The notes under the pieces: generated by a model
The model's input: the letters and a program-made list of their open reading frames with translations, nothing else
Database searches by the model: none
What the model was told of the DNA's origin: nothing
Translations under genes and position numbers: made by a program
Shown: positions 36,840 to 59,385 of the stretch, in pieces
How the letters are laid out: every line of letters starts with the position of its first letter
Position numbering within the stretch: the stretch's first letter is position 1
Source of the DNA: Lachnospiraceae bacterium
GTDB taxonomy: Bacteria; Bacillota; Clostridia; Lachnospirales; Lachnospiraceae
Assembly: GCA_030526985.1 (NCBI GenBank)
Contig: JAUNBT010000001.1
Location: 2,838 to 66,837 of the forward strand
Reading direction: 5' to 3'
DNA length: 64,000 nucleotides

Positions 36840-36840
36840 T

Positions 36841-45145: not shown

Positions 45146-46561
45146 TTATTTTTTCTGTTCCATATATTCTTTTAAGGCGGCTCCCAATGCCTGACAACCC
45201 TTCACAATTTCCTCTTCTGTCATAGCATTAAACCCGACCAGAAAAGTATCTTCTCTGGCCCGGTTTTTCTGATAATAGTACTCCTTTGTACCGTATATTC
45301 CTATTGAACGATTTTTCATCCATTCAATCAGCTCATTCTGATTTTTACAATCCGGAATTCTGATTAGAGTATGAACTCCTGCCGGATGCTCAAAAAGTTC
45401 AATATATTTTTTTAAATACTTCTTTAATGCCCCCACCAACACATGATATTTCTGCTCATTTATCAGGGAAATTCGTCGGATATGTTTTTCTAAGGAGCCT
45501 TCCTCAATAAATCGAAACAGCGCTCTTTGGTGATAACTGGGCAAAGCAGAATTAAAATACTGATATACCTCCTGATACCGGGGCAAAAGCTGTTCTGGTA
45601 AAACAAGATAGGCACATCGGATTGACGGCAGCATTACCTTCGATAATGTGCCGGTATAAATGACTCTGTCTTCTTCGTCTAAAGACTGAAAAGACGGGAT
45701 TGGCACCACACCGTACCGGAATTCACTGTCATAATCATTTTCAATGATATAAGCATCATTTTCTCTGGACCAGTCAAGAATTCTTTTTCTCTTTTTTACA
45801 CTGGTCACTGTTCCGGTAGGAAACTGATGAGAAGGAGTCATATAAACTAAGTTACAATTTGTATTTTCTAAAAGTTCAGCATCGATTCCGTCGTCCAATA
45901 CCGGAATAGATGTGATACTGTATCCTTTATTAATAAAAATATTTCTCATGGCATCATAGCCCGGCTCTTCATAAGCTAAACGATACTGATTCGCCGGAAG
46001 CAGCGTTGTGATAATATCCACTGCAAACTGGGTTCCCGGACACATAATAACCTGCTCCGGTTTACATTTTACACCTCTGTGCTTATTTAAAAAACTGCAC
46101 AGACTTTTTCTTAACTCTTCATTTCCTTTATTGCATTCATATGGAATTGTCTGCATGCTTTCTTCGTCAAGCAATGCTTCCTGTATGCATTTTTTCCATT
46201 TATTCCAGGGAAATACACTGGTATCGATACTGGAATATAAAAAATCATATTTGTTATAAAACTCTTCTGATGGTTCTTTTTTAGAGAAATGTTTCTTCCG
46301 GCTGTTTTGTTCAAAATAGTCCTTCGTAATATCTTCTACATAATAACCGGAACCAGGAACAGAACGGATATAGCCTTCCGCCAAAAGCTGCTGATAAGCC
46401 CGATCCACCGTATTTTTGCTAATCTGAAGCTCTTTTGCTAAAATGCGGACAGAGCTTAAAACTGTATTTTGAGGTAATTTTCCAGTGACGATTTCTTCCT
46501 TCAATTCTTCATACAATTGTTCATATAACGGTTTGTTAATATTTTTATCTAAATAAACCAT
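45146..46561 (-). CDS. MocR-type regulator (GntR wHTH fused to a PLP aminotransferase-like domain)
   Basis: N-terminus LSSVRILAKELQISKNTVDRAYQQLLAEGYI. The roughly 350-aa C-terminus has a fold-type I aminotransferase pattern (...TGTLSKVMLPSIRCAY...). Confidence 0.8.
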   Translation of the reverse strand: MVYLDKNINKPLYEQLYEELKEEIVTGKLPQNTVLSSVRILAKELQISKNTVDRAYQQLLAEGYIRSVPGSGYYVEDITKDYFEQNSRKKHFSKKEPSEEFYNKYDFLYSSIDTSVFPWNKWKKCIQEALLDEESMQTIPYECNKGNEELRKSLCSFLNKHRGVKCKPEQVIMCPGTQFAVDIITTLLPANQYRLAYEEPGYDAMRNIFINKGYSITSIPVLDDGIDAELLENTNCNLVYMTPSHQFPTGTVTSVKKRKRILDWSRENDAYIIENDYDSEFRYGVVPIPSFQSLDEEDRVIYTGTLSKVMLPSIRCAYLVLPEQLLPRYQEVYQYFNSALPSYHQRALFRFIEEGSLEKHIRRISLINEQKYHVLVGALKKYLKKYIELFEHPAGVHTLIRIPDCKNQNELIEWMKNRSIGIYGTKEYYYQKNRAREDTFLVGFNAMTEEEIVKGCQALGAALKEYMEQKK

Positions 46562-46576
46562 TCTTTATCCACTCCA

Positions 46577-47281
46577 TTACCCAACCCACCTTGCGGCATA
46601 ATTTTTGCAATATTCACAGTTCTTATGTCCGGACAGACACTCACTGCAGTTCATTGACGACAGAACCATCTCCTGATCTAGAAGAAGGAAAATGCCGACA
46701 AAGCTTTTGACTGGATTCATCATCCCACTCTCTAAAAGTTCTAAGTCAATCTTTTTGTGATCCATAAATCGAAAGAATGTCCGCACCTTCGAAGATGCTA
46801 TGCCAAACATACCCGGTGCAAGCGTATCTGTAATATACAGTTCCTTTTTGTACTCTTTCTTTGCTTTTTTTAGCAGCAGTTCTCTTAGCACATCCCTTCC
46901 GGCATCCACAAAGCTTGTCTGCCAGGAATCAGCCAGATACATTTCACTGACCGGATAGGACGAAAGATCCGGCATCGGTGCATGAAACATAAATACATAT
47001 CCGCCCAGGACACTTTCTAAGTCCACTTTACTTAATATATTACATTCAATTTTATAATTTTCAAGAAGAAAATGGTCTTCTTTCACACATTCTTTTGTAA
47101 AAGGACGAAGTAAAAAATCCATCTTTGTGCCGTCAAATATCTTTTTCCTAACTTTCATCGCATTGTCCCGGATTTTTTTTGCCCCTTTGGTATCCCGGTC
47201 AAATCCGCACATCACTGCCATATACTGTTCTGAAAGGTCGTATAACTTCTCCGTCTCTATTGTCAAAATTTCATCTGGCAT
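46577..47281 (-). CDS. Methionine-synthase activation-domain-like protein with a C-terminal CX2CX6CX2C motif
   Basis: 234 aa. ...LAPGMFGI.......F.....IDLELLESGMMNPVKSF.GI... resembles stand-alone MetH activation (Met_synt_B12-like) proteins of Clostridia. The tail reads CSECLSGHKNCEYC. Confidence 0.5.
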   Translation of the reverse strand: MPDEILTIETEKLYDLSEQYMAVMCGFDRDTKGAKKIRDNAMKVRKKIFDGTKMDFLLRPFTKECVKEDHFLLENYKIECNILSKVDLESVLGGYVFMFHAPMPDLSSYPVSEMYLADSWQTSFVDAGRDVLRELLLKKAKKEYKKELYITDTLAPGMFGIASSKVRTFFRFMDHKKIDLELLESGMMNPVKSFVGIFLLLDQEMVLSSMNCSECLSGHKNCEYCKNYAARWVG

Positions 47282-47289
47282 TTTCTCTC

Positions 47290-48330
47290 CTAATATTTTC
47301 CGTATGTATTCGCTTCCTCCACCATAACTCTGGCAAAATGATCATCCATCAGTGCCGGATATTCACAGCCGGTGGCAAGGATGAATCCGCCATCCTTTTT
47401 GTAGGCATCGATCTGTTCCCGGCAGAGTTTTCTCAGTCTTTCATCATCGGCCACCATTAAAAATCCCGGGTCGATATGTCCAATAATCGTTGTCTGGCTT
47501 CCGTATTTTTCTTTTAATTCCTCCATAGTCCCACAGTCTGGTGGAAGATAAAGCATGGAAATCGCTTCCGGATGCATCCTTGCAATCTGCTCTTTAAAAT
47601 AAATACCGTCTCCGCAGTTGTGAATCATAAATGCTTTTCCCTGACGATGGACATTTTCAGCCAGCCTCTGTAAGGCTGCTCCCTCAAACTCATCCCACAT
47701 AGATGCTCTCATAATTGTTTTGGAAGAATATAAAGTATCGTACATAATACCATCGGCACCCGCTTCAATGAGGGCATTACTGTACTCAATCAAAACATCT
47801 GTAACAACATTGATTTTTTCTTTGACTTTGTCCTTCATTTTTTTCTTCATACAGTGCATCATAAGTCCCTCTAAGCCGGTCATCATACTCAATATCCCCA
47901 TCGGTCCAAATACAAAGGCAATAATCGGATACTCTTTTCCCTTTTTCTCAACCAGAATCTTTGTAAGCTCAATCATTTTACTCATCCGCTCTGTTTTTCT
48001 CGGATTAATTGGAACGACCTTTTCGTAATCTTCCAATGTTTTGATAAAAGTATCACCGGAAGGCATCACCGCTTTATCTGGATAGTAGGTAATATCCATT
48101 CCCCAGTCTGCAGCCTCCACAGATAAATCCACTAAAGTTACGATCACATCTAATCCCAAATCTTCTGTTGTCTTAATAATCGCATCTGCACATTTTTCAG
48201 GATCCTTTGTCCACTCATCATAACCAATTCCATATTTTCTCCATGAAATACTGTTGCAAATCGGGTAAACAGGAACTCTGTCTGCCTCCTCATGGTTTAA
48301 TATTTTCATTACTCTTTCCCTTGCATTCAT
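47290..48330 (-). CDS. Uroporphyrinogen decarboxylase (URO-D) family methyltransferase (MtaA/MtbA/CmuA-like)
   Basis: 346 aa. MNARERVMKILNHEEADRVPVYP and the overall length are typical of the corrinoid-dependent MT2/URO-D family. It ends in TAG. Confidence 0.7.
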   Translation of the reverse strand: MNARERVMKILNHEEADRVPVYPICNSISWRKYGIGYDEWTKDPEKCADAIIKTTEDLGLDVIVTLVDLSVEAADWGMDITYYPDKAVMPSGDTFIKTLEDYEKVVPINPRKTERMSKMIELTKILVEKKGKEYPIIAFVFGPMGILSMMTGLEGLMMHCMKKKMKDKVKEKINVVTDVLIEYSNALIEAGADGIMYDTLYSSKTIMRASMWDEFEGAALQRLAENVHRQGKAFMIHNCGDGIYFKEQIARMHPEAISMLYLPPDCGTMEELKEKYGSQTTIIGHIDPGFLMVADDERLRKLCREQIDAYKKDGGFILATGCEYPALMDDHFARVMVEEANTYGKY

Positions 48331-48493
48331 GTCTAATCCCTCCTGGATGTGTAATCAACCTTGCTGTTGTATAACTATATTTATACTATCTGTCTCTTTT
48401 TTCGGAAAGTGTCAATTATGAAAAAAAAGAATGGGACAATTTTTTTCACACAGGCAGTAAAGCTGCAAAATCACTTTCATCTATCCACCTTTT

Positions 48494-50470
48494 TCAGATT
48501 CCGCAGTATGCCGTTACCGTCACTCTTCCACCTAACAGCAGACTTTTGCCGCCTGTATTGGATTGAAACTGATCTACATTCTGAAAGAAGGTCACTTCAC
48601 CCCTTCCCCCTCTTTCCTTTAACTTTTCTTCTGCCGTTTTTTCTAAATATTTTGTCACAATCTCAACAGCCTCTTCAAAGTCTTCCACGATTTTTTTCTC
48701 TCCTGAAAGAAAGAATCGGAAACCTTCTTTTTCCTTCTCACTTCCAAAACTAAGCTCGATTGCATCTGTCACTGCTATTCTTCCAGCCAGTGTGCCAACT
48801 GCATTCGCCGCCATAGAATATGGAGGGATGCATACTTTTGCCGACAGTTTTTTTCCCACTTTCTCCATAAAAATGTGGGCCGGTCCTCCAACTCCGACTA
48901 TGGAAAGCTTACTGAAAAATCCGGGAACAATCAACTCAGACTGATTTTCTTCGCTTGCATATTCAATGAAACGGGACAGTTCCTCCGGAATTCCGTTTTG
49001 ATAAAGTTTCGTCCCTTTTTCCAAAAGGACCCGGACAATATTACAGTAAAGTTTTCTTTCCACAAGAGCATAAATTTCATCCGCTATTTCGTTTTCTGTC
49101 CGCTCTTCAAGCTTAGCCAAAAACCGGAGTACAATCCGGGAAGCCTCCCCATCAAATCCATTGTAATCCCCTTTTACATGCATGGCATCTGTGGGCGTGA
49201 TACCAAACCGTAAAAGAACCCCTTCTTTTTCCAACTGTTTTACAGTATCCTCCAGATAGTATCTTCCACAAAGATGGGCTGCTTCCTCGTAAAGAATGGG
49301 GCCATCCTTTAACCTTTCTATCAGTGCAAGCTGTTTTTCGTCGTAATAAGCCGCATTCCTGCTTTCATCCTGGAGGACAAATCCCTCAAAGACAAAACCT
49401 TTCCCCAACTTTTTTACAAGCGGAAGCTGTTTTAATTTCTCCAAAAGCTCCGGATAGCAGGCCGCCGCCATAGCAACCGGCATGACACGAAAATTTTCCA
49501 GGTACAGTCCTTTCTCGTTATATCTGATACAGCTGTCACCGCCCAGGCCAACGGTATCGATATAGAGACCTTTTACAAAGGTTTTCCAGCCATTCATTCG
49601 AATCCCATCTTTTACTGTGACCGCCATCCCATTTCGCAGAAGAGCCATATCCGTCGTGGTGCCGCCGATATCAACAATCAGGGCATCTTTTTCTTTCGAC
49701 AAAAAACTTCCTCCCACCGCACTAGCCGCCGGACCACACAAAAGAGTTTCTACCGGATGGTTTTTTGTAAATGTCTCATTCATCAATGTTCCATCGCTTC
49801 TCACCACATAAATCGGAAGATTTAAGCCTTTCCTTTTTAACACACATTTGACTGCGCACAAAAACTGGTCAATCAGTGGAATCAAACGGATATTTAGATA
49901 AGTACCGGCTCCCCGCATGATTGCATTTACATCAGAAAACAGAAAACTTCCACAGATCACTGGGACAGAATATCTCTTTTCAAACCGTTCTTTTGCCTGT
50001 CTTTCATAGGCCCCGTCGTTCCATTCAGGAAAATACTGCACAATTCCAATCGCTTCTGCCTCTTTAAATTCGTCCATCATCCCTTCTAGTTTCTCCCAGT
50101 CAGGCTCTACCGGTCTGCAAAATCCACCCTCCGGCACACCATCTATAAAATAGAGGTCGTCCATACCGTCAAAACCATATTGTTTGTAATGCCTTTTTAC
50201 GATTTCTTCTTTCACGCCGATAAATAAAAGCTTGACCCGTCCACCTTTATTTTCCACACACGCATTGGTAGCAAGGGTAGTAGAAAGGGAGACAAAGGAA
50301 ACTTCCCTTAATTTTTCTTTTTCCAAAAGATTTAGAGCCTTTTCGATTCCGGTTTCAAGATGTCCTTTTGTCGTCAGCGTTTTTCCGGTAGATAACACCT
50401 GCTGGCTGTCAAAATCATAGATTACCGCATCTGTACAGGTCCCTCCTGTATCAATTCCCAGTCCAATCAT
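48494..50470 (-). CDS. Hydantoinase/oxoprolinase-family (ASKHA-fold) ATPase
   Basis: 658 aa. N-terminus MIGLGIDTGGTCTDAVIYDF and an internal IVDIGGTTTDMAL are the two phosphate-binding motifs of hydantoinase A-type proteins. Its start lies 21 nt after the pylSc stop. Confidence 0.7.
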   Translation of the reverse strand: MIGLGIDTGGTCTDAVIYDFDSQQVLSTGKTLTTKGHLETGIEKALNLLEKEKLREVSFVSLSTTLATNACVENKGGRVKLLFIGVKEEIVKRHYKQYGFDGMDDLYFIDGVPEGGFCRPVEPDWEKLEGMMDEFKEAEAIGIVQYFPEWNDGAYERQAKERFEKRYSVPVICGSFLFSDVNAIMRGAGTYLNIRLIPLIDQFLCAVKCVLKRKGLNLPIYVVRSDGTLMNETFTKNHPVETLLCGPAASAVGGSFLSKEKDALIVDIGGTTTDMALLRNGMAVTVKDGIRMNGWKTFVKGLYIDTVGLGGDSCIRYNEKGLYLENFRVMPVAMAAACYPELLEKLKQLPLVKKLGKGFVFEGFVLQDESRNAAYYDEKQLALIERLKDGPILYEEAAHLCGRYYLEDTVKQLEKEGVLLRFGITPTDAMHVKGDYNGFDGEASRIVLRFLAKLEERTENEIADEIYALVERKLYCNIVRVLLEKGTKLYQNGIPEELSRFIEYASEENQSELIVPGFFSKLSIVGVGGPAHIFMEKVGKKLSAKVCIPPYSMAANAVGTLAGRIAVTDAIELSFGSEKEKEGFRFFLSGEKKIVEDFEEAVEIVTKYLEKTAEEKLKERGGRGEVTFFQNVDQFQSNTGGKSLLLGGRVTVTAYCGI

Positions 50471-50491
50471 ACTCTTTTGTTCTCCTTTTAC

Positions 50492-51334
50492 TTATTTAAT
50501 GTTTAATCTCGCTCCATCTAAAAATGCAAGGCTTCTGGAATAACGGTGGATTCCCTCTTCCTTTTCCCGATACATTAAAAGCCGCTCTAAGCCAAATCCA
50601 ACTCCCACCCAGCTGCAGGTTACATTCCAGGCATCATCTAGTGGATGTGGCCCCATGGAAGTAGAGGCAAGCTCCAATCCATCGGGACTTACAATATCAA
50701 TCCCTTTTCCGTATACAACAGATTCTTCCTCCTCCACCTTGAAATCTTTTATTCCAGCTGCATTTAATACAATTTTGGAAAACTCTTTTAACCTTTCGTT
50801 CCTCTCTTCTATAGGAGTTCCCCACTCTACCAGATTTAACATGGTAAATTCTTTTAAATGCTGTCTTCCCTCTGACTCTTTTCGAAAACAGGAACCAATT
50901 TCAAATACCCTGAGGGGAAGCTTTGAAAAATTCATCAGCCGTTTGGATACATCATAAAGATTCGGTGCTAACATCGGACGCAGACAGGTCTTTTGGTCCA
51001 GCCAGAACACTTGATCATTTAACGGATGGGTTCCATCTATGGTCATCCTCTCTAAAAATTTTCTAGAAAGAATGGTCGGTGTCGCCACCTGAGTAAATCC
51101 ATGCCCAATCAAACAATCGGCAAGATCATTTTGCAGACGGCACAATTTGGGTTGACGGGTTTCGTAAAGAAGAGTACGAATCCGTCTTTTATTTTCTGTC
51201 ACTGCTTCTTTTTCAATTTTTTGATAACTTTTTCCTGCTGCCTGTTTCTCTTCAAACTCCTGTTCTCTTACTTCCTTTTTTACCCCTAATTCTGACAAGC
51301 GGATTTTTTGTGTCTCTGAAAATGAATATGCCAT
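50492..51334 (-). CDS. pylS: Pyrrolysyl-tRNA synthetase, catalytic (C-terminal) subunit PylSc
   Basis: Class II aaRS core: LRPMLAPNLY, RVFEIGSCFRKESEGRQHLKEFTMLN, WVGVGFGLERLL and tail SLAFLDGARLNIK. This closely resembles the bacterial PylSc sequence as I recall it. The ATG at 51334 follows AAAGGAGG. Confidence 0.9.
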   Translation of the reverse strand: MAYSFSETQKIRLSELGVKKEVREQEFEEKQAAGKSYQKIEKEAVTENKRRIRTLLYETRQPKLCRLQNDLADCLIGHGFTQVATPTILSRKFLERMTIDGTHPLNDQVFWLDQKTCLRPMLAPNLYDVSKRLMNFSKLPLRVFEIGSCFRKESEGRQHLKEFTMLNLVEWGTPIEERNERLKEFSKIVLNAAGIKDFKVEEEESVVYGKGIDIVSPDGLELASTSMGPHPLDDAWNVTCSWVGVGFGLERLLMYREKEEGIHRYSRSLAFLDGARLNIK

Positions 51335-51348
51335 CTTAAAATCCTCCT

Positions 51349-51723
51349 TTACCTTTTTGCTTTTGAATCTGTAAATACGGTCGCCGAATATTTGGAAAGC
51401 TTCCACTGGGGCACTTTACATTTGGGACATGCATGCTGACACCAGCGATTCCGAATCCATCTTGCACTGCGGCTGTTTTTTGAATTCCACACGGTAAACT
51501 CTTCTCCGCAGTGAGTCGTAATATGAAGCATATTGCCCCGCTGTTCAATCTCTTTTATGCCATGAAGCACACCGGAACGGGCCGGCCATAATTTAATCTT
51601 ATGAATCAACTCATATAAACTCTGATTTTTATAAATATATCGTTTCGGTTCTATCTTTTTTTGTACTGTCCCCGCTGCCATCCTGATTCCCTCTTTTCTT
51701 TTTATGTCAGTTTTTGTTTTCAA
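51349..51723 (-). CDS. pylSn: Pyrrolysyl-tRNA synthetase N-terminal (tRNA-binding) subunit PylSn
   Basis: 124 aa. ...LWPARSGVLHGIK...ITTHCGEEFTVWNSKNSRSARWIRNRWCQHACPKCKV matches the zinc-binding PylS N-domain pattern. The start could instead be the internal Met at 51681. Confidence 0.8.
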   Translation of the reverse strand: MKTKTDIKRKEGIRMAAGTVQKKIEPKRYIYKNQSLYELIHKIKLWPARSGVLHGIKEIEQRGNMLHITTHCGEEFTVWNSKNSRSARWIRNRWCQHACPKCKVPQWKLSKYSATVFTDSKAKR

Positions 51724-51738
51724 TTCCGGTCCATTTCT

Positions 51739-52548
51739 TTATCCAATGTCCTGTTTCATGCAGTCATAATACATTGTAAGTACGCCGGATTCTAATGGAT
51801 TAAAAATTAGCACCGCCTCTTTTTGTGCCTCCTTTGTTGTCCCAATCGGCATTCCCGGAGAAGCGATTACTGTCCCTGCTGCAACATCATTCTTTGTAAT
51901 CACGCCCTCTACCGGAGTAGCATCCAGAAAATAATGAAATTCCTTTTTCTTTCGTCCCGATTCAAGCACCTTTCCGTAAGGAAGTCCTTTTACAGCCTCG
52001 ATTGCTCTTTCTTCCACCACATCATAGACAGAAAATGGAATCTGATTTAAGTCAAACCAACCGGCAGCCGCCCTTCCAACCGGACCTGCCCCTAACACTA
52101 ACACTTCCTCTTTCTTCCCTTTCATCGCCAGACTTAAAGCCGCCGCATAACCGATTCCTGTTCCATAGCCATTATCCGAATAAATCCGTCTCCCATCCAA
52201 TAAAAATGCACTGAAAATATCATCATCAGCCATAAAGACCATTTCCGCATTTTTTTCATAGGCTTCCTGTAACCCTGCCACATCGGTTTTTTGGGTCACC
52301 CATGCATCAATACCACAGTATTTTAATATTTCACAGACAGTATCGGAAAAACCACCAATGATTCCAAGACCACTTGTCACCGGTACTACTGCAGTCCGGT
52401 AATGAGTTCTCCTGTTTTTTAATCCCACTGCATACTGAGCAGTCTCCTCCATGGTGCATCCCGTCTGCTTTTTAAATTCCTGATCAGAAAGAGCCATCCG
52501 CTCTGCAACTTTTTCAATATCTGATTCTATTAATCTTGACATAATCAT
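51739..52548 (-). CDS. pylD: Pyrrolysine biosynthesis dehydrogenase PylD
   Basis: 269 aa. VVPVTSGLGIIGGFSDTV, MADDD and VLVLGAGPVGRAAA (Rossmann) are collinear with archaeal PylD. Confidence 0.85.
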   Translation of the reverse strand: MIMSRLIESDIEKVAERMALSDQEFKKQTGCTMEETAQYAVGLKNRRTHYRTAVVPVTSGLGIIGGFSDTVCEILKYCGIDAWVTQKTDVAGLQEAYEKNAEMVFMADDDIFSAFLLDGRRIYSDNGYGTGIGYAAALSLAMKGKKEEVLVLGAGPVGRAAAGWFDLNQIPFSVYDVVEERAIEAVKGLPYGKVLESGRKKKEFHYFLDATPVEGVITKNDVAAGTVIASPGMPIGTTKEAQKEAVLIFNPLESGVLTMYYDCMKQDIG

Positions 52549-52565
52549 CCGCCTTTCTGTCTCGT

Positions 52566-53711
52566 TTACCCTTCTATTAATTTTAACTGTCTGTTCCCAA
52601 GTGATTCATTAATATTGTCAATGCAATTTAAAAATTCTTTTCTTGCCTCTTTTTCAGTTTTTGCCGTGACAATCAAGATTGCTTTAAATGCCTTCGCTCC
52701 TTTTTTATAATCCGTAATGCCCTCTTTGGCTCCAAAAAAATGTTCTTTTACATATAATTCTTTACAATCCGTCAGGATATGTTCTCCCTTTACTAAGATT
52801 CTGTCCGGTTCCACACTAATCTGCTGGTAATAGCAAACTTCCTCTTTCTTCTTTTCGGCCCGGGCAGATTTTTTCAGTGTCAATTCCACCAACAACTGGA
52901 TCATATTAATCCCACTTGACTGATACACGCTGATTGGTGTCTGGCTCGGAAATCTGGCATCAATTTCTAATATTTTTAAAACTCCATTATGGCAGATTAC
53001 TTCAATGTCAAAAATTCCTCTTATTTTTAAAGCTTTTGCCAATTTTTCTGCCATATGGTAAAACTGCTTTTCCTGCTTTTTACTCAAAGAAGCCGGGGCT
53101 ATAATTCGTTTACAGTCATACCCTTTGTCAATCACAACTTCTGTAATCTGCGGAAAATAAAACTGATTTCCATCTCCAATCACCTCCAAAGAAAAGGAGC
53201 GTCCTTCTAAAAACTCCTGTACTACCGCATTTTCTCCCATTTCTTTTAAGATTTCTTCCGCTTCCTCCTTCGATTTCGCCTTTTTAACCCCTACACTTCC
53301 GCTTAAACCGTCTGGTTTTATAATAACTGGAAATGCATTCTCCCCATATCTCCCCGGCATAGGAAGGTCCAACTTTTCAAATAGCTCGTTAGATTTTTTC
53401 TTGGAAGAAGATATTTCATAGGCTTTTGGATCGAAAATAACCGGAATATGAAATCGTTCCCCAAAACAGCTGAGTTTTTCTAAAACTGCTTTCTTCTCCA
53501 TCGCTGGAATCACCACATCTGCTTCCTGAAACAGGCGTGTAAATCGTTCCTCTTCTTTTAAAATGTCGATTACCTCTACACGGTCTGCAATTCCAAATGC
53601 CGGAGCATGTTTTCTTTTATCTGCCACGGTTACATGATATCCGGCTTTTTTTGCCAGATAGGTGACCTCGATTCCCTGAAGTTTTCCTCCGACTACTAAA
53701 ATTTGAATCAT
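52566..53711 (-). CDS. pylC: 3-methylornithine--L-lysine ligase PylC (ATP-grasp)
   Basis: MIQILVVGGKLQGIEVTYLAKKAGY plus an ATP-grasp body. The ATG at 53711 follows AGGAGG. The ORF-track N-extension overlaps pylB. Confidence 0.85.
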   Translation of the reverse strand: MIQILVVGGKLQGIEVTYLAKKAGYHVTVADKRKHAPAFGIADRVEVIDILKEEERFTRLFQEADVVIPAMEKKAVLEKLSCFGERFHIPVIFDPKAYEISSSKKKSNELFEKLDLPMPGRYGENAFPVIIKPDGLSGSVGVKKAKSKEEAEEILKEMGENAVVQEFLEGRSFSLEVIGDGNQFYFPQITEVVIDKGYDCKRIIAPASLSKKQEKQFYHMAEKLAKALKIRGIFDIEVICHNGVLKILEIDARFPSQTPISVYQSSGINMIQLLVELTLKKSARAEKKKEEVCYYQQISVEPDRILVKGEHILTDCKELYVKEHFFGAKEGITDYKKGAKAFKAILIVTAKTEKEARKEFLNCIDNINESLGNRQLKLIEG

Positions 53712-53754
53712 ATCGCTCTCCTCCTGTTCCTTCCAATGTTGTCTCATTGCTGTT

Positions 53755-54801
53755 TTATCGCTGACTTTGTCTTTTTTCAATCCATTTTTGGTAACTTAAG
53801 GCGCCTGCATCGGAAAGCCCACATTCCTTTACAGTCTCCATAATACCTTCCACGGTACGTCCGCCTTCATCAATATCGGTTTTCGCACTGGCAACCCCGG
53901 CAAATCCTTTTTTCGGTGGGATAATGGATGTGATTACATTTGCCCCCGCCATCAGACGCTGTTTTAATCCGTTAAGGCCATCCACGTCTAAAGAGGCCGG
54001 AATCAGTCTGTCCGGAAACAAAATCCTCATCAGTGCAATATTTAAAAGTTCATCGTGAAAACTTCTGCGTTCTATTTTTCCCATCGGTGTTCCATCCTGG
54101 GGGATAAATGTCATCGTCCTTACCTGAGAGGCTCCTAAACGCTCCATTTCTTGAAAGGACAAATAAATATCTTCCCTCGATTCCCCTACTCCTGTAAGAA
54201 GTCCTTCCTCAATCAACATTCCTTTTTGAGCTGCATATTCTTTCGCCGCCATTCTTTCTTCGTAAGGCTGTCCGGTCCGCAGACTATCATAGAGCTTCTT
54301 TTGATGTGTCTCCTGATACAGTGCATACCAGGAAGCTCCAGCTTCTGCAAGCTGATCAATTACTTTGTGGGAGACAACCCCGGGAGAAATCATGACTGGG
54401 AGTCCAGTTTTATCCTTTACCTCCCTGACCGTCTCTATCAGTTCCTCCGGATGAGAAATATAATAAGGATCTTCTCCCATAGTAAGATCAATTAGATGAA
54501 CACCGGATTCTTTTAAACTTACCGCCGTCTCAATAATCTCCTGTCGGCTTTTCCGATAGCGGGGCGGTTGTTTATTTTCTTTCCGGTAAAAGCAGAAAGA
54601 ACAATTATTTCTACAATAAGTAGAAAAATAGACAAATCCATAAAAAAATACCTGGTCATTAAAATATTTCTGTCTGACCTTTCTTGCTGCCCTATAGATT
54701 TCCTCTCTGGCATCCTCCTCTTTCTGATTTAATAAAAATAGGATTTCTTCCTTTTTAAAATTTTCTATTCCTGTTTTCTTTAAAATATCTGTCAGATTCA
54801 T
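53755..54801 (-). CDS. pylB: Methylornithine synthase PylB (radical SAM)
   Basis: 348 aa. YFSTYCRNNCSFCFYRKEN (CX3CX2C), biotin-synthase-like fold, and its position at the head of pylBCD. Confidence 0.85.
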   Translation of the reverse strand: MNLTDILKKTGIENFKKEEILFLLNQKEEDAREEIYRAARKVRQKYFNDQVFFYGFVYFSTYCRNNCSFCFYRKENKQPPRYRKSRQEIIETAVSLKESGVHLIDLTMGEDPYYISHPEELIETVREVKDKTGLPVMISPGVVSHKVIDQLAEAGASWYALYQETHQKKLYDSLRTGQPYEERMAAKEYAAQKGMLIEEGLLTGVGESREDIYLSFQEMERLGASQVRTMTFIPQDGTPMGKIERRSFHDELLNIALMRILFPDRLIPASLDVDGLNGLKQRLMAGANVITSIIPPKKGFAGVASAKTDIDEGGRTVEGIMETVKECGLSDAGALSYQKWIEKRQSQR

Positions 54802-54851
54802 CGCTTTCTCCTCCGGTTGTTTTATTTCTGTTGGCTGTTTTCAAGTGCACG

Positions 54852-54888
54852 AAAAAAGAGAAGTGTATCCGCTACACTTCTCTTTTTT
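54852..54888 (-). terminator. Symmetric intrinsic terminator between pylT and pylB
   Basis: Stem AGAGAAGTGTA / TACACTTCTCT with an A-run on one side and a T-run on the other, so it is potentially bidirectional. Confidence 0.6.
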
Positions 54889-54933
54889 CTTTGCCTGGCA
54901 TTGTTTCTTCCCTGTTTATACACAAACAGTAAG

Positions 54934-55002
54934 CGGAGAATCCCGGCGCTGCACCCGGCTGTACGGAGTTAGAGTCCGCATGATCACTTCGATCCATCCT
55001 CC
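54934..55002 (-). tRNA. pylT: tRNA-Pyl (anticodon CUA)
   Basis: Manual fold of GGAGGATGGATCGAAGTGATCATGCGGACTCTAACTCCGTACAGCCGGGTGCAGCGCCGGGATTCTCCG. It has a 7-bp acceptor stem, a single linker nt, a 4-bp D stem with a 5-nt loop, a 6-bp anticodon stem, loop CUCUAAC, and a 3-nt variable loop CAG. CCA is not encoded. Confidence 0.85.
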
Positions 55003-55005
55003 AGA

Positions 55006-55092
55006 TTTTTCAGTACGGGATTTTTTCAGACCCATCCGAAATTCTGCCCTGAAAATTTTGGTGCCGGTCTGAAAAAATATTCCGCCTGAAAA
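55006..55092. repeat. Array of five TTTTCAG/CTGAAAA heptamers forming a long inverted repeat between mtmB and pylT
   Basis: TTTTCAG occurs at 55007-55013 and 55023-55029. CTGAAAA occurs at 55049, 55069 and 55086. ATTTTTTCAGACC (55020-55032) pairs perfectly with GGTCTGAAAAAAT (55066-55078). Confidence 0.7.
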
Positions 55093-55123
55093 TAAATCGC
55101 GTGTTAAAATGTCTGCTTAATGC

Positions 55124-56512
55124 TTAATCCCAATAATCTAATCCAAGGCCTTTTAAGATTTCAACTGCCTCATCATAAATCTCAACATATTCCTGTGATG
55201 GTGTCAGAGTCTTCACGTCATAGCATTCCTGGAATTTCTTTCCTGTCGGAGCAGTCTTATAGTCCTTCTCATACATGGAAACTAACTTATCCAGTAATAC
55301 ATTTACCTCATGAAGATCCATTCCTGCAACAGCATGTGCTGCCTCACCCATCATTCTGGCCTCCATTGCGGTAAATAAATCTGTTGTTACTCCTTTACAG
55401 GATGCAACACCGGAGAGAATCTCTCTTCCACTTGCCGTATCTGTAATTGCCTGTGCCGCTGTCTCTAAAAGACACATAACGGTACATGGACCAGCCAGAG
55501 TATAGTATTGATTTCCAAGGATTAAATGTGTATTTTCTTCAATTGCTTTTGCTGCATGACCTGCCACGCAAAGAGCTTCTCTCGCTGTTGTGATACCCCA
55601 GCGGACGTGAACAGGACCATCCAGATGCCAGGTAGCCTGTAACATTACAAAAGAGTTCAGTGTAGTTGCTACGTCAACGATTGTGGTAGCCTCAAGACCA
55701 CCAGCATATCCTCCGTAAATCGGCATCTGCTCTACCATAACATTTACACCAGCTTCTGCGTAATGAGCACCAACACACAACGCACCTACGTCGATTTTGA
55801 GCTCATTAAGCTGGGAAACCTCATGGGAGTCAGATGGACGCATGCCGCCCTCGAAGTCTGCTTCGATTACACCAGCGGCACTAAGGGATGTTTCGTTGCC
55901 CTACAATCCCATGCCGCATCGTCCGGCTCTCATCTGTGCTTCCCGCACCTGTAAAGCTTCGGAACGAACGGCCATAATTTCCCAAGGTGATCCTGGAACA
56001 GGATCTTTGCCCATCACTGTCTGCATAACACCGTCAACAATCGTATCCACAATTGGTTCCTGAGCATATGCCTGATGGATCGGAAGGAACATTTCCTCTG
56101 AACATGGAGATCCGGTCGGACCACCCTGAATCACAGGTGCCTTCTTTTCACTGGAATGTCTCGGTACTACGTTGATGGCCTCTTTGCCCTCACCGTATGT
56201 AAAATGATCCGGTGCTGTTTTAATTGCATGCAGCACTTCATCTCTTGTATATTTAATTACTCTTTTCGTATCGATGCAGTAAACACCACATTCTACCAAA
56301 AGGTCTAACCCTGCTTGAAACAGCTTATCACAAAGCTCTTTATCTTCAGGTATAATCGTCTTTTTATCCATTTTGATGCCGTACTTTTTCTTTAAAGCAG
56401 CGGCGGTCTGAGGAATGACTTTAAAATCCCATTCTTTTTCATCCATCTTAGGACCGCTTTTTGCTCTGTCATAGACATCATAAACGGTAATCGCTTTTCC
56501 GATTGCCTTCAT
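55124..56512 (-). CDS. mtmB: Monomethylamine methyltransferase MtmB with an in-frame UAG (pyrrolysine) codon at 55901-55903
   Basis: ORF-track pieces 55901-56512 and 55124-55843 are in the same frame and are separated only by TAG. Manual read-through gives ...AGRCGMGL-[UAG]-GNETSLSAAGVIEADFEGGMRPSDSHEVSQLNELKID... This is collinear with archaeal MtmB, which carries Pyl at the equivalent position. Confidence 0.9.
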
Positions 56513-56515
56513 CCT

Positions 56516-57178
56516 TTAAGCACTCCTTTTCTCACTCAATAATTTCTTTGCTATCTCAACTGCTTCTGTTGCCGTATCGGAATATCCGTCTGCCCCGATT
56601 GTATCGCACCATTCTTTTGAAACCGGTGCACCGCCAAACATGACAATATAATCGTCTCTGACTCCATCCTCATTTAAGAGAGTAATAATGTCTCTCTGAG
56701 CCGGCATGGTTGTGGTCATCAGCGCGGATCCTAAAATAATATCTGCATTGACTTCCTTTGCTGTTTCCACAACTGTTTCCACTGGTACATCACGTCCTAA
56801 ATCATGGACTGTAAAATTGTTTGCGGAAAACATTGTCTTTACAATATTTTTTCCAATATCATGGATATCTCCCTGAACGGTATGGATTACAACAGTTCCA
56901 TTCGACGTACTGTTCTTTTCTTCCTCAGTCATTCCACTCGTCAGAATTTCCACCGCTTTTTCAAAAGCTTCGGAAGCCATCAAAAGTTCCGGTACAAAAG
57001 CTTCTCCTTCGTCAAACAGATCACTCATTTTCTGCATTCCGGCAGATAAACCTTCGCTGATACATTCTAAGGGATCTAATCCAGCTTCTAAAGCGGCATT
57101 GGCAGCTTCTTCGGCAATGTCTTCATCCATCTCTGTAACGGCTTCTTCTAACTTGCTCATAATCTCTTCTTTGCTCAT
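56516..57178 (-). CDS. mtmC: Methylamine-specific corrinoid protein (MtmC-like, B12-binding)
   Basis: DxHxxG motif GDIHDIGKNIV and a helical-cap N-domain. The ATG at 57178 follows AGGAGG. Its stop lies 3 nt before the mtmB start. Confidence 0.85.
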   Translation of the reverse strand: MSKEEIMSKLEEAVTEMDEDIAEEAANAALEAGLDPLECISEGLSAGMQKMSDLFDEGEAFVPELLMASEAFEKAVEILTSGMTEEEKNSTSNGTVVIHTVQGDIHDIGKNIVKTMFSANNFTVHDLGRDVPVETVVETAKEVNADIILGSALMTTTMPAQRDIITLLNEDGVRDDYIVMFGGAPVSKEWCDTIGADGYSDTATEAVEIAKKLLSEKRSA

Positions 57179-57412
57179 CTTCCAACCTCCTTTATGTCTT
57201 CTCTTCATAGCCTCTAGCACATGAGCTTTTTTGTTCCTCATGTCTATGGTTCGTATTATACGGATTTTTTTGTCCTCTCTAAAGGGACAATCCCGGCGTT
57301 TTTTTCGGGGTCAGGAAAAAAATCTGCACAAAACGGCTTAAAATAAGGCTTTTTTTCTATTTCCTACTATTTTGCTTCCCCTTCTTTTCCTTTTTCCCTT
57401 TTTCTTTTTTGG

Positions 57413-57464
57413 GGTCAAAAAAAAGAACTGTCCCTTCGGTTTTTTTAATCCGAAGGGACAGTTC
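57413..57464 (-). terminator. Intrinsic terminator downstream of cstA
   Basis: 15-bp perfect stem GAACTGTCCCTTCGG / CCGAAGGGACAGTTC, followed on the minus strand by an 8-nt U-run. Confidence 0.85.
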
Positions 57465-57492
57465 CCAATTTGTAAAGTCTTATTTATAAAAT

Positions 57493-59193
57493 CTATGCTG
57501 TTTTCGTTTTTCCTGTTTCTTCTTTTTCTGTCAACTTTTTAATTCCCTGAATTGCCACAATAACACCAAGAATTAATAACAGTACGGCGAAAATCAGCTG
57601 CAGTGTATTTCCAAGGCTTAATCCGGTTGTCATAAATGCTTTTGTCAGATTGATGATTGTCATGGAAAGAGCAGTAAAGGTAACTGCCATCATAAATACC
57701 ATCGGAATCCAGAGCATTGCACCCTGCCGTTTTGTTTTCTTTAAAAATACTGCGCAGGCTACAAGAGCAAGTACAGAAAGCAGCTGGTTTGCAGAACCAA
57801 ACAGCGGCCAAATTTCTGCGTAACCTACTTTAGCTAACAGATAAGCAAGAACTAAGGTGATAACGGTTGCAAAATATTTATTCGTCATCAGTTTGATTAC
57901 AGGACTCATGTTCTTTGTATCTGTATCTTCATCCATGAAAAATTCCTGGAAGGAAAGTCTTCCGATTCTGGCTACAGAGTCCAAAGAAGTCAGTGCAAAA
58001 GCAGATACAGCTAAATTAATTAATGTAAATACCAGGCTATGAGGAAGTCCCACTGCTGATAAGAAATTGGCAATCGCACCGGCAAAAATCTGAGGCTGTG
58101 TTGTCAGTCCCTGCGCTGCTGCCTCTCCTTCTGCAAAAGAAGCAACTGCAATCAATGCGATAATAGCAAGCATACTCTCCATCAACATGGCACCGTAAGC
58201 TACTGGAAGCATATGCTTCTCACTCTTGATCTGTTTGGAAGCGGTACCGGAAGATACTAAGGAATGGAATCCGGATACTGCACCACAAGCGATTGTAACA
58301 AATAAGATTGGGAACATATACTGTCCGTCCACATTAAATCCATTAAATGCAGAAAGGTTACAGGACGGATTTGCCACAAAGACTCCGACAACTGCACCGA
58401 CAATCATAAAAATCAACAGGTAACTGTTCAGATAATCACGAGGCTGAAGCAGTGCCCACACAGGAACCACACATGCGATCATAATGTATAAAAAGATAAT
58501 AATATGCCATACATCCCTTGTAATGTAGATTGGGAAATTAAGACCAACAGCAACAGCTACCACAAGCATGACAATAGCAATAATCGTGTTGACCCATTTT
58601 GATAATTTTGCATATTTTAAAATCATTCCAAGTAAAACTGCCTCTAAGATAAACAGCATGGAAGTCATAGCAACTGCACCATTTGCTGCCACTTTTGTCA
58701 CAGTACCTGCCTCATCTGCAACAAAACCGTTAAAGGTTCCTGCTACAACGTCAGCAAAAGCTGCAACAACAAGAATACAAAACAGCCAGCAGAAAAGTAA
58801 AAATAATTTCTTTCCAAGCTTACCAATGTACTCTTCGATAATATAACCAATGGTACGTCCTTTGTTTTTTACTGAGGCGTACATGGATGCGAAATCCTGC
58901 ACCGCACCAAAGAATACACCACCAATTAAAATCCAAAGTAAAACAGGAAGCCAACCAAAGATTGCTGCCTGAATCGGGCCGTTAATCGGTCCTGCGCCAG
59001 CGATAGAAGCAAACTGATGTCCAAATACAACGTTTGTATCTGCCGGAACATAGTCCACACCGTCTTCAAACTCGTAAGCCGGAGTTTTTGCATTAGGGTC
59101 AATGCCCCACTTGTTCTGTAAATAGCGGCCATAAAGCAGATAAGCTCCGCCTAATACGATGATCGCTATTACCATCATTAAAATACCACTCAT
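57493..59193 (-). CDS. cstA: Carbon starvation protein A family transporter
   Basis: 566 aa. VFGHQFASIAGAGPINGPIQAA is the conserved CstA N-terminal motif. It ends in TAG. Confidence 0.85.
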   Translation of the reverse strand: MSGILMMVIAIIVLGGAYLLYGRYLQNKWGIDPNAKTPAYEFEDGVDYVPADTNVVFGHQFASIAGAGPINGPIQAAIFGWLPVLLWILIGGVFFGAVQDFASMYASVKNKGRTIGYIIEEYIGKLGKKLFLLFCWLFCILVVAAFADVVAGTFNGFVADEAGTVTKVAANGAVAMTSMLFILEAVLLGMILKYAKLSKWVNTIIAIVMLVVAVAVGLNFPIYITRDVWHIIIFLYIMIACVVPVWALLQPRDYLNSYLLIFMIVGAVVGVFVANPSCNLSAFNGFNVDGQYMFPILFVTIACGAVSGFHSLVSSGTASKQIKSEKHMLPVAYGAMLMESMLAIIALIAVASFAEGEAAAQGLTTQPQIFAGAIANFLSAVGLPHSLVFTLINLAVSAFALTSLDSVARIGRLSFQEFFMDEDTDTKNMSPVIKLMTNKYFATVITLVLAYLLAKVGYAEIWPLFGSANQLLSVLALVACAVFLKKTKRQGAMLWIPMVFMMAVTFTALSMTIINLTKAFMTTGLSLGNTLQLIFAVLLLILGVIVAIQGIKKLTEKEETGKTKTA

Positions 59194-59385
59194 TTTTTTA
59201 CCTCTTCCTTCTTAAACGTAAAGATAACTGTTCAAAGAATTTCTTTGAACAGTTACATTTAAAGTTTCTCAAACACATATTTAATCACTTTCAGGCAAAA
59301 AATGCAACACGTATTTTTTACAAAATATTACTTATAATCGCAAATTTTTTTAGACATTTTTTAACTTTCTGTCGATTTTTGGACT

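Follow-up and report, generated by a model that had tools for sequence, protein, structure and literature searches.

Evidence for an intact bacterial pyrrolysine system within a monomethylamine methyl-transfer operon of a spore-forming Lachnospiraceae-type bacterium

Introduction

Does a contig from a Lachnospiraceae MAG carry a complete and intact system for making and inserting pyrrolysine (Pyl), and how far does the functional unit around it extend? An earlier note on the window, which is the whole stretch of 64 kb analysed here, had proposed a contiguous cassette pylT-pylB-pylC-pylD-pylSn-pylSc as a genetic-code expansion island in an otherwise conventional clostridial setting. Cassettes of this type are well known, and the present one is no new type. 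Guo et al. 2022 listed 81 bacterial Pyl genomes, 41 of them Clostridiales (PMC9630628), and Borrel 2014 gave two gene orders, pylTScBCDSn and pylSnScBCD (PMC3941956); the order of the window is not among these two. Here we explore the identity and integrity of the parts, their genomic neighbourhood and their resemblance to known systems.

Methods

Identity of PylB, PylC, PylD, PylSn and PylSc was judged by the curated equivalog cut-offs of NCBIfam. The tRNA was evaluated with a Pyl covariance model (R1) made from 55 independent bacterial tRNAPyl genes, called by ARAGORN and all from other genomes. Features of the pyl/mtm region are given below in window coordinates and all lie on the minus strand.

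Results

All six parts of the cassette are present, contiguous and co-oriented at 50492-55002, as the earlier note had stated; these limits are exact, in that the stop codon of pylSc ends at 50492 and the tRNA has its 5' end at 55002. Family-specific HMMs, which had been suggested as a check, place the five ORFs in Pyl families and reject generic ones, all five proteins exceeding their equivalog cut-offs. The radical-SAM methylornithine synthase PylB (53755-54801, 348 aa, protein MDO4553564) scores 482 bits with TIGR03910 (cut-off 348) and shows CxxxCxxC (CRNNCSFC) in its translation. The ATP-grasp 3-methylornithine--lysine ligase PylC (52566-53711, start refined to ATG 53711, 381 aa, MDO4553563) scores 383 bits with TIGR03909 (cut-off 248) and matches Pfam PylC-like_N and ATP-grasp_3, and the 3-methylornithyl-N6-lysine dehydrogenase PylD (51739-52548, 269 aa) scores 200 bits with TIGR03911 (cut-off 150), matches Pfam PylD_N (E 1e-30) and has a GxGxxG motif (VLGAGPVG).

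The claim of a split PylS was likewise borne out. PylSc, the catalytic large subunit of pyrrolysyl-tRNA synthetase (PylRS; 50492-51334, 280 aa), scores 315 bits with TIGR02367 (cut-off 178), aligns end to end with Desulfitobacterium hafniense PylSc structures 3DSQ/2ZNI (residues 6-279, E 2e-83) and is 100% identical to a 280-aa GenBank protein named 'pyrrolysine--tRNA(Pyl) ligase large subunit'; its start was refined to ATG 51334, which is preceded by the Shine-Dalgarno sequence aaaggagg. PylSn, the tRNA-binding small subunit (51349-51681, 110 aa), scores 124 bits with TIGR03912 (cut-off 51) and aligns with the N-terminal domain of Methanosarcina mazei PylRS (5UD5, E 5e-11), the His and Cys columns being conserved. 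Its ORF reaches back to TTG 51723, and the start was refined to ATG 51681, in agreement with MDO4553561. Since the reading frames of pylSn and pylSc differ, with a gap of 14 nt, they form a true split gene.

The cassette lies just downstream of a UAG-containing monomethylamine:corrinoid methyltransferase gene, as had been claimed. This gene, mtmB (55124-56512, 462 residues), has a single in-frame stop, a TAG at 55901-55903 that forms codon 204. Its two halves match positions 1-195 and 197-450 of the Pfam MtmB profile, and the whole aligns over 453 residues with M. barkeri MtmB1 (1L2Q/1NTH/1TV2, E 1e-176), the TAG column corresponding to residue 202 (Pyl202). Upstream, a putative mtmC (56516-57241) encodes a cognate corrinoid protein (TIGR02370 'methyltransferase cognate corrinoid protein', 241 bits, cut-off 215) with Pfam domains B12-binding and B12-binding_2. 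Decoding of the UAG is predicted to yield the peptide GMGL-O-GNETSLSAAGVIEADFEGGMR, with a Pyl residue of 237.15 Da, and an unread UAG would yield a 203-residue MtmB.

Might the ORFs instead be generic paralogs of biotin-synthase-like, ATP-grasp and class-II aaRS-like type, with the TAG a pseudogene lesion? The ORFs do have weak secondary matches to BioB, HydE, Ddl, PheRS and similar families, but these score three- to five-fold under their own cut-offs (the best being BioB 102 against 225, HydE 132 against 255 and Ddl 52 against 246 bits), whereas the same ORFs surpass the cut-offs of the Pyl-specific models. The position of the TAG coincides exactly with the Pyl column, the split into 203 plus 240 aa is found again in dozens of homologs, and a cognate tRNA with the anticodon CUA follows mtmB after 121 nt. 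We give this explanation practically no weight and reject it on the equivalog scores, the covariance match of the tRNA and the position of the TAG.

The tRNA, pylT (tRNAPyl(CUA), 54931-55002), passes the proposed check by a Pyl-specific covariance model with 78.6 bits (E ~1e-18) over model positions 1-72 of 72. It is the only such gene in the window, the runner-up in 64 kb scoring 9 bits. Covariation supports the structure of the model: 12 of its 22 pairs vary at both positions, pairing holds in 98.6% of the cells, and none of the shuffled or slid controls equals this. The MFE fold of pylT is a cloverleaf, with acceptor and D stems 1 nt apart, a D-loop of 5 nt, an anticodon stem of 6 bp, the loop CUCUAAC and a variable loop of 3 nt; compared with its nearest relatives it has compensatory changes at pairs 6:67 (A-U for G-C) and 10:25 (G-C for A-U). 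The body spans 55002-54934, 69 nt up to the discriminator G, and CCA is not encoded (GCUU).

A decaying remnant, in which the protein genes look intact while a crippled tRNA (G.G in the T-stem, G58, no CCA) leaves the UAG undecoded and MtmB truncated, is improbable, even though several features of pylT point that way. ARAGORN calls no tRNA here, while 55 of 80 relatives do receive a tRNAPyl call; the covariance model flags a non-standard T-stem pair, the central G.G mismatch; the T-loop has G at position 58, where A58 is nearly invariant; and the score is the lowest of the 17 tRNAs compared (others 80-93 bits). Yet the G.G mismatch is clade-wide, occurring also in L001, L003-L006, L009, L010, L013, L014, L019, L024, L028, L020-23 and L082-84, and ARAGORN accepts several such tRNAs of other loci. 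The canonical T-stem register is supported by covariation of its outermost pair (C-G to U-A in L028 and L020), the GCAGC T-loop is common to L020/21/23, and CCA is likewise unencoded in L005, L011, L012, L018, L027, L070 and L082-84. All five pyl ORFs and both mtmB halves are, moreover, uninterrupted and score above their cut-offs. Rfam does not match pylT either, at its gathering score or at E<=10, which is uninformative because it misses canonical bacterial tRNAPyl as well.

Between pylT and pylB lies an intrinsic terminator (54850-54889), a hairpin with a 17-bp stem followed by a U-run (MFE -27.5 kcal/mol, z = -6.7; none of 200 shuffles folds as well). Of 20 loci with the order T-B-C-D-Sn-Sc, 15 have a comparable hairpin and T-run in the 100 nt that follow pylT; of 16 loci with T-Sc-B-C-D-Sn one does, and of 100 shuffles none, so that the strong terminator is a feature specific to the former order. 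A search upstream of pylB gave no convincing promoter.

The functional unit is wider than the span of the earlier note, extending roughly over 45146-60396. The co-oriented string opens with a CstA-family transporter gene (57493-59193; Pfam CstA, E 3e-147), which adjoins pyl genes in none of the other loci examined and ends in TAG with a backup TAA two codons on; that it takes up methylamine is no more than conjecture. Upstream of the operon an XRE/HTH_3-type protein (59386-60396; Pfam HTH_3, E 2e-16; RstR-like NCBIfam match below cut-off) is a candidate regulator of it. At the other end, 22 nt downstream of pylSc, a Hydantoinase/MutL-like ASKHA protein (Hyd) is encoded (48494-50470; Pfam Hydantoinase_A, Hydant_A_N and MutL, weak GlmL match), followed by a URO-D/MtaA-family methyltransferase (47290-48330; Pfam URO-D, E 4e-55), an uncharacterised 234-aa protein, U234 (46577-47281), and a MocR/PdxR-like GntR-aminotransferase regulator (45146-46561; NF052282, 467 bits, cut-off 320). 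The block Hyd-URO-D-U234 is kept beside pyl/mtm genes in Eubacteriaceae ES2 (57% identity) and L090, and more distant Hyd homologs (49% and 42%) have unrelated neighbours. The URO-D protein, 74% identical to its ES2 ortholog, is a candidate methylcobamide:THF (MT2) enzyme and is placed to family level only, as it scores 118 bits for MtaA/CmuA (cut-off 235) and 88 for MtbA (cut-off 600). Homologs of the MocR/PdxR-like regulator adjoin pyl genes in L007, L009, L010, L012, L016, L018 and ES2. A reductive activase of RamA/RACo type was not found among the ORFs of at least 110 aa in the 64-kb window; in the nearest relatives (L082-84) it resides inside the cluster as a RACo-URO-D fusion.

U234 matches no Pfam or NCBIfam family and ends in a C-terminal CxxC-x6-CxxC motif. 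Its AF2 model (pLDDT 89.8, pTM 0.83) suggests a fold like the MetH reactivation domain, the top 18 Foldseek matches in the PDB all being MetH activation domains (best 1J6R, E 4.6e-6, TM 0.56/0.64). The protein is encoded in or beside the pyl/mtm cluster in 13 of 13 loci examined, and six family representatives have N-terminal fusions to the corrinoid activase RACo.

A spore-forming clostridial host, as had been suggested, here of gut type, agrees with the genes for GerA, a germination permease, SpoIIR, SipL and a CotS-family protein in the window, which also encodes a serine recombinase at 10896-13019. The term island found no compositional support: GC is 0.37-0.45 and skews are uniform throughout the 64 kb and TAG is still a normal stop, so the cassette is not a compositional island. 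It is very unlikely that the pyl/mtm segment is foreign to this host, whether mis-binned, joined by a chimeric assembly or acquired very recently from another bacterium or a methanogen. In favour of such an origin, the contig comes from a MAG, pyl clusters move horizontally (Borrel 2014, PMC3941956; Guo 2022, PMC9630628) and a recombinase is present, though 37 kb away. Against it, GC and skews are uniform, a single contig carries the cluster co-oriented and in continuity with genes for sporulation, thiamine and cobalamin, and an independent Logan assembly of another run repeats the pylSn-pylSc-Hyd junction. A PylS divided into PylSn and PylSc is, moreover, the form of bacteria, and the nearest homologs of PylSc, at 79-63% identity, come without exception from Clostridia.

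Pyl systems in bacteria had been described as known but rare. The first holds and the second is relative, with 2,738 PylSc homologs at E<=1e-10 and at least 558 of 185,579 species representatives carrying PylSc. The gene order of the window recurs in at least 18 of the 80 related loci examined, and the layout mtmC-mtmB-pylT-BCD-Sn-Sc in at least 18 other genomes, including cultured Desulfosporosinus, Bengtsoniella intestinalis and Eubacteriaceae ES2. Standard annotation misses the system only in part. As had been expected, ARAGORN and Rfam miss the tRNA, and automated gene callers (Logan/ENA/JGI) break mtmB into products of 203 and 239/240 aa, but at least four of the five pyl proteins (PylSc, PylSn, PylB and PylC) are correctly named in GenBank on this contig.

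Discussion

The analysis shows what each part is and that all are intact, that the UAG occupies the structural Pyl site, and that covariation accompanies the tRNA structure. With high confidence we consider the locus an intact bacterial pyrrolysine system inside an operon for methyl transfer from monomethylamine (MMA) in a spore-forming bacterium of Lachnospiraceae type, and judging from sequence it is probably expressed and active.

The reaction steps of PylB, PylC, PylD and PylS are established for these families. PylB would isomerise lysine to 3-methyl-D-ornithine, which PylC would join to the epsilon-amine of a second lysine; oxidation by PylD and cyclisation would give pyrrolysine. PylSc would then charge tRNAPyl(CUA), its tRNA binding strengthened by PylSn, and Pyl-tRNAPyl, in competition with release factor 1, would read codon 204 of mtmB into full-length MtmB. 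MtmB would transfer the methyl group of MMA to Co(I)-MtmC, from where the URO-D-family enzyme would probably pass it to tetrahydrofolate. We infer that transcription of pylT accompanies or follows that of mtmCB and stops at the terminator, in which case pylBCDSnSc needs read-through or a promoter of its own. Since TAG still serves as a normal stop in this genome, expression probably depends on methylamine. Read-through at three TAG stops would fuse neighbouring genes, a cost that suggests tight regulation or low activity of Pyl decoding.

With the reference bacterial system of D. hafniense (pylT-pylSc-pylB-pylC-pylD-pylSn) the window shares the split PylRS, the compact tRNAPyl architecture and the three biosynthetic genes; it differs in having BCD first and pylSn directly before pylSc at the 3' end, in the terminator that separates pylT from the protein genes and in the G.G T-stem mismatch. 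Its order is that of Desulfosporosinus sp. HMP52 and D. nitroreducens (L009, L010), Bengtsoniella intestinalis (L013), Eubacteriaceae ES2 (L014) and many Clostridia MAGs. In these clusters mtmC-mtmB precede pylT-BCD-Sn-Sc in all but L013, the G.G T-stem is present in all, and L009, L010 and ES2 have a MocR-type regulator and a U234 homolog close by, as the window does, but PylSc identity is only 60-67% and the window tRNA additionally has G58 and C38. The accessory genes are CstA and Hyd in the window and the RACo-URO-D fusion in L082-84.

U234 resembles Thermotoga maritima TM0269 (1J6R), a stand-alone MetH activation domain, in its modelled fold and as a stand-alone partner of a corrinoid-dependent methyltransferase system. 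Unlike MetH activation domains it has no PF02965 match and its homologs only faint ones (E 0.007 and 4e-4), and unlike TM0269 it has an extra invariant C-terminal Cys4 motif, its linkages or fusions being with RACo and pyl/mtm genes and not with metH.

The archaeal MtmB1/pylTSBCD system of M. barkeri has the same PylB, PylC and PylD families and the UAG in the same Pyl202 column, whereas its PylS is a single fused gene and that of the window is split. There MtbA delivers the methyl group to coenzyme M and RamA serves as activase; the host here is a bacterium, with a URO-D-family MT2 candidate below the MtbA/MtaA equivalog cut-offs. In Acetohalobium arabaticum, Prat et al. (2012) reportedly described a conditional expansion of the genetic code, with UAG an ordinary stop and the pyl cassette beside methylamine methyltransferase genes. 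In the window, too, TAG stays an ordinary stop, ending 9 of the 56 other ORFs; the client gene is mtmB and not mttB, and expression in the organism of the window may depend on substrate.

The pyrrolysine cassette and its protein genes

Five successive ORFs and a tRNA-like sequence occupy positions 50492-55002 on the minus strand, which an earlier note had read as a complete pyl cassette in the order pylT-pylB-pylC-pylD-pylSn-pylSc (hereafter T-B-C-D-Sn-Sc). The ORFs were assigned to families by means of NCBIfam equivalog models at their curated cut-offs. Profiles place all five in Pyl families and not in generic ones: the radical-SAM methylornithine synthase PylB scores 482 bits against a cut-off of 348 (TIGR03910; its CxxxCxxC motif reads CRNNCSFC in translation), the ATP-grasp 3-methylornithine--lysine ligase PylC 383 against 248 (TIGR03909; Pfam PylC-like_N), the dehydrogenase PylD 200 against 150 (TIGR03911; Pfam PylD_N, E 1e-30), PylSc 315 against 178 (TIGR02367) and PylSn 124 against 51 (TIGR03912). 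The generic relatives remain well under their own NCBIfam cut-offs (BioB 102 vs 225, HydE 132 vs 255, Ddl 52 vs 246). PylSc can be aligned over its whole length with crystal structures of D. hafniense PylSc (3DSQ/2ZNI, E 2e-83), and PylSn aligns to 5UD5, the M. mazei N-terminal domain, with the His and Cys columns kept.

The pyrrolysyl-tRNA synthetase is split, pylSn and pylSc lying in different reading frames and pylSc having its own ribosome-binding motif (SD). The pylSc ORF extends 58 nt upstream into pylSn, as a fused pylS broken by a frameshift would; this explanation was rejected since a strong SD (aaaggagg) precedes the likely pylSc start at ATG 51334, the conserved form has 280 aa and bacterial systems are all split (PMC9630628). 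Likely starts of pylSn and pylC are ATG 51681 and ATG 53711, and the products from these three starts are exactly those in GenBank. A GenBank protein from a Lachnospiraceae MAG contig has the same sequence as PylSc (100% identity), and PylSn (MDO4553561), PylB (MDO4553564) and PylC (MDO4553563) are correctly named on that contig as well.

The tRNAPyl gene

Read by eye, pylT (55002-54934, minus strand) shows the typical traits of tRNAPyl: the acceptor stem has 7 bp and is set off by one base from the 4-bp D-stem, the D-loop has 5 nt, the anticodon stem has 6 bp and the loop CUCUAAC (anticodon CUA), and the variable loop has 3 nt. Its minimum free energy fold is a cloverleaf of unexceptional energy (z = -0.49). 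ARAGORN found zero tRNAs in the window, and Rfam none at the gathering score in the window nor at E<=10 on a 501-nt slice. The generic Rfam tRNA model also fails on canonical tRNAPyl (Sporomusa, L001; L numbers denote PylSc-encoding or related loci from other genomes), so its miss in the window is uninformative.

As an independent test, a Pyl-specific covariance model was applied. From 80 PylSc-encoding loci of species-representative genomes, 55 tRNA-Pyl genes called by ARAGORN were aligned and used to build it. Cloverleaf covariation in this alignment is strong, with 98.6% of cells paired and both sides varying in 12 of 22 pairs, and no shuffle or slid control came near. The model gave a single match in the window, at 54931-55002 on the minus strand (78.6 bits, E ~1e-18, model positions 1-72), the runner-up scoring 9 bits. 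Given this match and the failure of Rfam on canonical genes, the blanks of ARAGORN and Rfam were rejected as evidence against pylT; the tRNA and the five ORFs above Pyl-specific cut-offs make the cassette complete. The model also finds tRNAPyl in 11 related loci missed by ARAGORN. A whole tRNAPyl clade escapes generic tRNA tools, and its members are recovered by a Pyl-specific covariance model.

The middle T-stem pair of the window gene is a G.G mismatch (CCGGG...CCGGG), which at first looked like damage. The same mismatch is common to L001, L003-6, L009, L010, L013, L014, L019, L020-24, L028 and the nearest relatives L082-84, and many genes of this clade are missed by ARAGORN. A shift of the T-arm register (4-bp stem, 8-nt loop) would do away with the mismatch; this is the less probable arrangement, since in L028 and L020 the outermost C-G of the T-stem has become U-A, a covariation in favour of the canonical register and with it of the G.G pair. 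Compensatory changes separate the window gene from its nearest relatives at pairs 6:67 (A-U vs G-C) and 10:25 (G-C vs A-U). Together with a few others it has G at the usual A58 (also L020, L021, L023 and L064), C38 and an unencoded CCA. Elsewhere in the sample, C replaces the near-universal U33 (loop CCCUAAA) in the tRNAPyl genes L020:2726-2797, L021:2727-2798, L023:2713-2784, L041:5749-5820 and L007:8362-8433.

UAG in mtmB and in other genes

The only in-frame stop of mtmB (55124-56512) is a TAG at 55901-55903, and the two halves match positions 1-195 and 197-450 of the Pfam MtmB profile. Aligned with M. barkeri MtmB1 (1L2Q/1NTH/1TV2; E 1e-176), the TAG falls in the column of residue 202, the crystallographic pyrrolysine. 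The methylamine methyltransferase gene next to the cassette, described earlier as containing UAG, therefore has this codon on the catalytic Pyl position; around residue 204 the protein would read GMGL-O-GNETSLSAAGVIEADFEGGMR, with a Pyl residue mass of 237.148 Da. Split MtmB products (203 aa, 239/240 aa) were seen only in automated Logan/ENA/JGI gene calls. The prediction that a standard annotation would miss the system holds for mtmB, split in such calls, and for the tRNA, missed by ARAGORN and Rfam, and fails for PylSc, PylSn, PylB and PylC, which GenBank names correctly. One close MtmB homologue from Logan, P0131 (463 aa), is recorded as a full-length protein whose Pyl position is Q (GMGLQGNE), probably owing to a gene caller with a TAG=Gln code rather than to a true CAG codon.

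Four other TAG junctions in the window have at least 70 in-frame codons on either side. Those at 4240, 5925 and 32751 (-) were rejected as Pyl codons, since each marks a normal boundary between genes, an SD and ATG following just past the TAG; the fourth, at 24929 on the plus strand, is antisense to annotated minus-strand genes. No further credible recoded gene was found among the in-frame TAG junctions of the window. TAG ends 9 of the 56 other ORFs, and read-through at 4240, 5925 and 32751 would give three fusions, of ThiG with ThiH, of a RecD2-like helicase with a MATE transporter and of a 111-aa ORF with an AAA-ATPase/PD-(D/E)XK protein. These TAG stops and the gene fusions that read-through would cause argue for conditional expression of the pyl system, as is reportedly the case in Acetohalobium. 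The TAG stop of the CstA gene is followed by a backup TAA two codons on.

Operon layout and a terminator after pylT

Upstream of the cassette lie mtmC, encoding the cognate corrinoid protein (TIGR02370, 241 bits vs a cut-off of 215), a CstA-family transporter and an XRE-type regulator; downstream are a hydantoinase/MutL-like ASKHA protein (hereafter Hyd), a methyltransferase of the URO-D/MtaA family, an uncharacterised 234-aa protein (hereafter U234), a MocR-type regulator and cobQ. CstA was rejected as a conserved methylamine transporter, no other pyl locus having one.

Directly after pylT, at 54850-54889 on the minus strand, is an intrinsic terminator composed of a 17-bp hairpin and a U-run (z = -6.7). 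A comparable hairpin within 100 nt after pylT occurs in 15 of 20 loci with the order T-B-C-D-Sn-Sc, in 1 of 16 with T-Sc-B-C-D-Sn and in 0 of 100 shuffles; what is conserved is the presence of a terminator and not its sequence. It follows that the mtmC-mtmB transcript probably has pylT as its last gene, and that pylBCDSnSc needs read-through or its own promoter, which suggests separate control of tRNA supply and amino-acid supply. A promoter scan gave 20 matches against 22.9 expected from shuffled sequence, and no promoter is claimed. Conserved-G.G tRNAPyl and a terminator before pylBCDS would characterize one PylSc clade, and its tRNA could define a distinct identity class; if true, this class would be of use for orthogonal-pair engineering.

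Methyl transfer and the search for an activase

Based on the established roles of the protein families, PylB, PylC and PylD would make Pyl from two lysines, PylSc, aided by PylSn, would charge tRNAPyl, and UAG204 of mtmB would be decoded as Pyl. The methyl group of monomethylamine (MMA) would then pass to a folate-type acceptor via MtmB, MtmC and the URO-D enzyme. This URO-D-family protein, the candidate methylcobamide:acceptor methyltransferase (MT2), is under the cut-offs of the MtaA/CmuA subfamily (118 vs 235) and of the MtbA equivalog (88 vs 600).

Among the window ORFs scanned (at least 110 aa) none has domains of the reductive activases RACo or RamA. RACo lies inside the cluster in relatives L082-84, L090-92, L005, L012 and L018, and an activase of either type may be encoded elsewhere in the window organism's genome. 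The nearest PylSc relatives (L082:754-3492, L083 and L084:735-3479) have between pylT and pylB a gene in which RACo (Fer2, linker, middle, ASKHA) and a URO-D methyltransferase are joined into one protein of 912-914 aa. The window has neither RACo nor URO-D between these genes, and its URO-D protein is not orthologous to that of the fusion (23% local identity).

Hyd (48494-50470, minus strand), a hydantoinase/MutL(GlmL)-like ASKHA protein encoded 22 nt past pylSc, was considered as a stand-in for the missing RACo. This is not supported: Hyd has no similarity to RACo, L090 contains both, and more distant homologues have unrelated neighbours and are unlinked to corrinoid genes. Only the closest Hyd subfamily travels with URO-D and U234, and the block Hyd-URO-D-U234 is kept in Eubacteriaceae ES2 and L090.

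U234, a candidate accessory protein

U234 (46577-47281, minus strand) has no match in Pfam, NCBIfam or, searched with the family profile, PDB sequences. A word-indexed search gave 30 relatives, each unnamed or 'hypothetical', and an exhaustive profile search a family of 753 cluster representatives. Homologues occur in L005, L007, L009, L010, L012, L016, L018, L022, L085 and L090-L092, and in 13 of 13 loci examined U234 is in or beside the pyl/mtm cluster, in at least four different positions. These are C-U234-D (L007, L016, L022, L091), T-U234-RACo-B (L012, L018), U234-RACo-B (L092), RACo-U234-T-B (L005), Sc-U234-MocR (L009, L010) and Hyd-URO-D-U234 (the window, ES2, L090); in ES2 it is ~9 kb from pylT.

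A confident AlphaFold model from 29 sequences (pLDDT 89.8, pTM 0.83) was compared with the PDB. MetH activation (AdoMet-binding) domains take all of the first 18 places, led by TM0269, a stand-alone domain (1J6R, E 4.6e-6), and the first unrelated fold has E ~1. U234 itself has no PF02965 match at the gathering score; two homologues have sub-threshold PF02965 matches around a conserved APG motif. Cysteines C212, C215, C222 and C225 are invariant and form a C-terminal Cys4 motif, the double CxxC being kept in both homologues read, from L009 and L005, at 27-30% identity.

Among the domain fusions checked, the U234 domain is N-terminal to RACo in six representatives, four of which have no detectable Fer2, and C-terminal to PylC in two. 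A role in assisting PylB/PylC instead of RACo-type activases is the less likely one. Taken together, fold, linkage and fusion best fit a stand-alone module that resembles a reactivation domain and would assist RACo-type activases in their action on the methylamine corrinoid protein. Such a partner would help to bring inactive Co(II)-MtmC back into catalysis. It could do so by keeping the corrinoid protein in a conformation suited to reactivation or, with putative AdoMet binding, by MetH-style AdoMet-dependent reductive methylation. The family, small, unannotated and fused to RACo elsewhere, is a concrete and testable candidate for keeping bacterial methylamine corrinoid proteins active. Nothing relevant on a MetH-activation-like protein in pyl clusters was found in the literature library searched. 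We are evenly divided on the joint reading that U234 is an accessory part, so far undescribed, of Pyl-dependent methylamine clusters in bacteria and that the G.G tRNAPyl forms an identity class.

Host and genomic context

The window encodes GerA, a germination permease, SpoIIR, SipL and a CotS-family protein, in agreement with the spore-forming host proposed earlier. GC content is uniform across the window, and the description of the cassette as an island thus finds no compositional support. A large serine recombinase with Resolvase, Recombinase and Zn-ribbon domains is encoded at 10896-13019 (minus strand) between two AAA-ATPase/PD-(D/E)XK (PDDEXK_9) genes at 2536-4227 and 13117-14358 (-), one of which looks truncated; the region is ~37 kb away from the pyl genes and may be what is left of a mobile element. 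At 36447-37278 on the minus strand, overlapping ORFs (36447-36914 and 36841-37278) each match TrkA_N; they could belong to a single TrkA-like gene that is split or frameshifted, or encode two small TrkA-N proteins side by side.

PylSc homologues at E<=1e-10 number 2,738, and at least 558 species representatives encode PylSc. Judged from its genes, the window organism, which probably comes from gut or rumen, would be one more of hundreds of bacterial species able to demethylate MMA with a Pyl enzyme. This bears on methylamine and TMA turnover in anaerobic gut ecosystems and leaves existing knowledge unchanged.

Comparison with known pyl systems

The earlier observation and its interpretation are correct, and the cassette belongs to a well-known kind that public annotation already recognises. 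Guo et al. 2022 (PMC9630628) described 81 bacterial genomes, mostly Firmicutes, with pylSn and pylSc always split. T-B-C-D-Sn-Sc is absent from the two bacterial pyl orders quoted by Borrel et al. 2014 (PMC3941956); it was found in at least 18 of our 80 loci, usually with mtmC-mtmB ahead, including cultured Desulfosporosinus, Bengtsoniella intestinalis and Eubacteriaceae ES2, and is one of two common bacterial layouts and no novelty. The U234 family is the main part that goes beyond prior knowledge of these systems; the only others are the clade-specific T-arm of the tRNA and the terminator that follows pylT.
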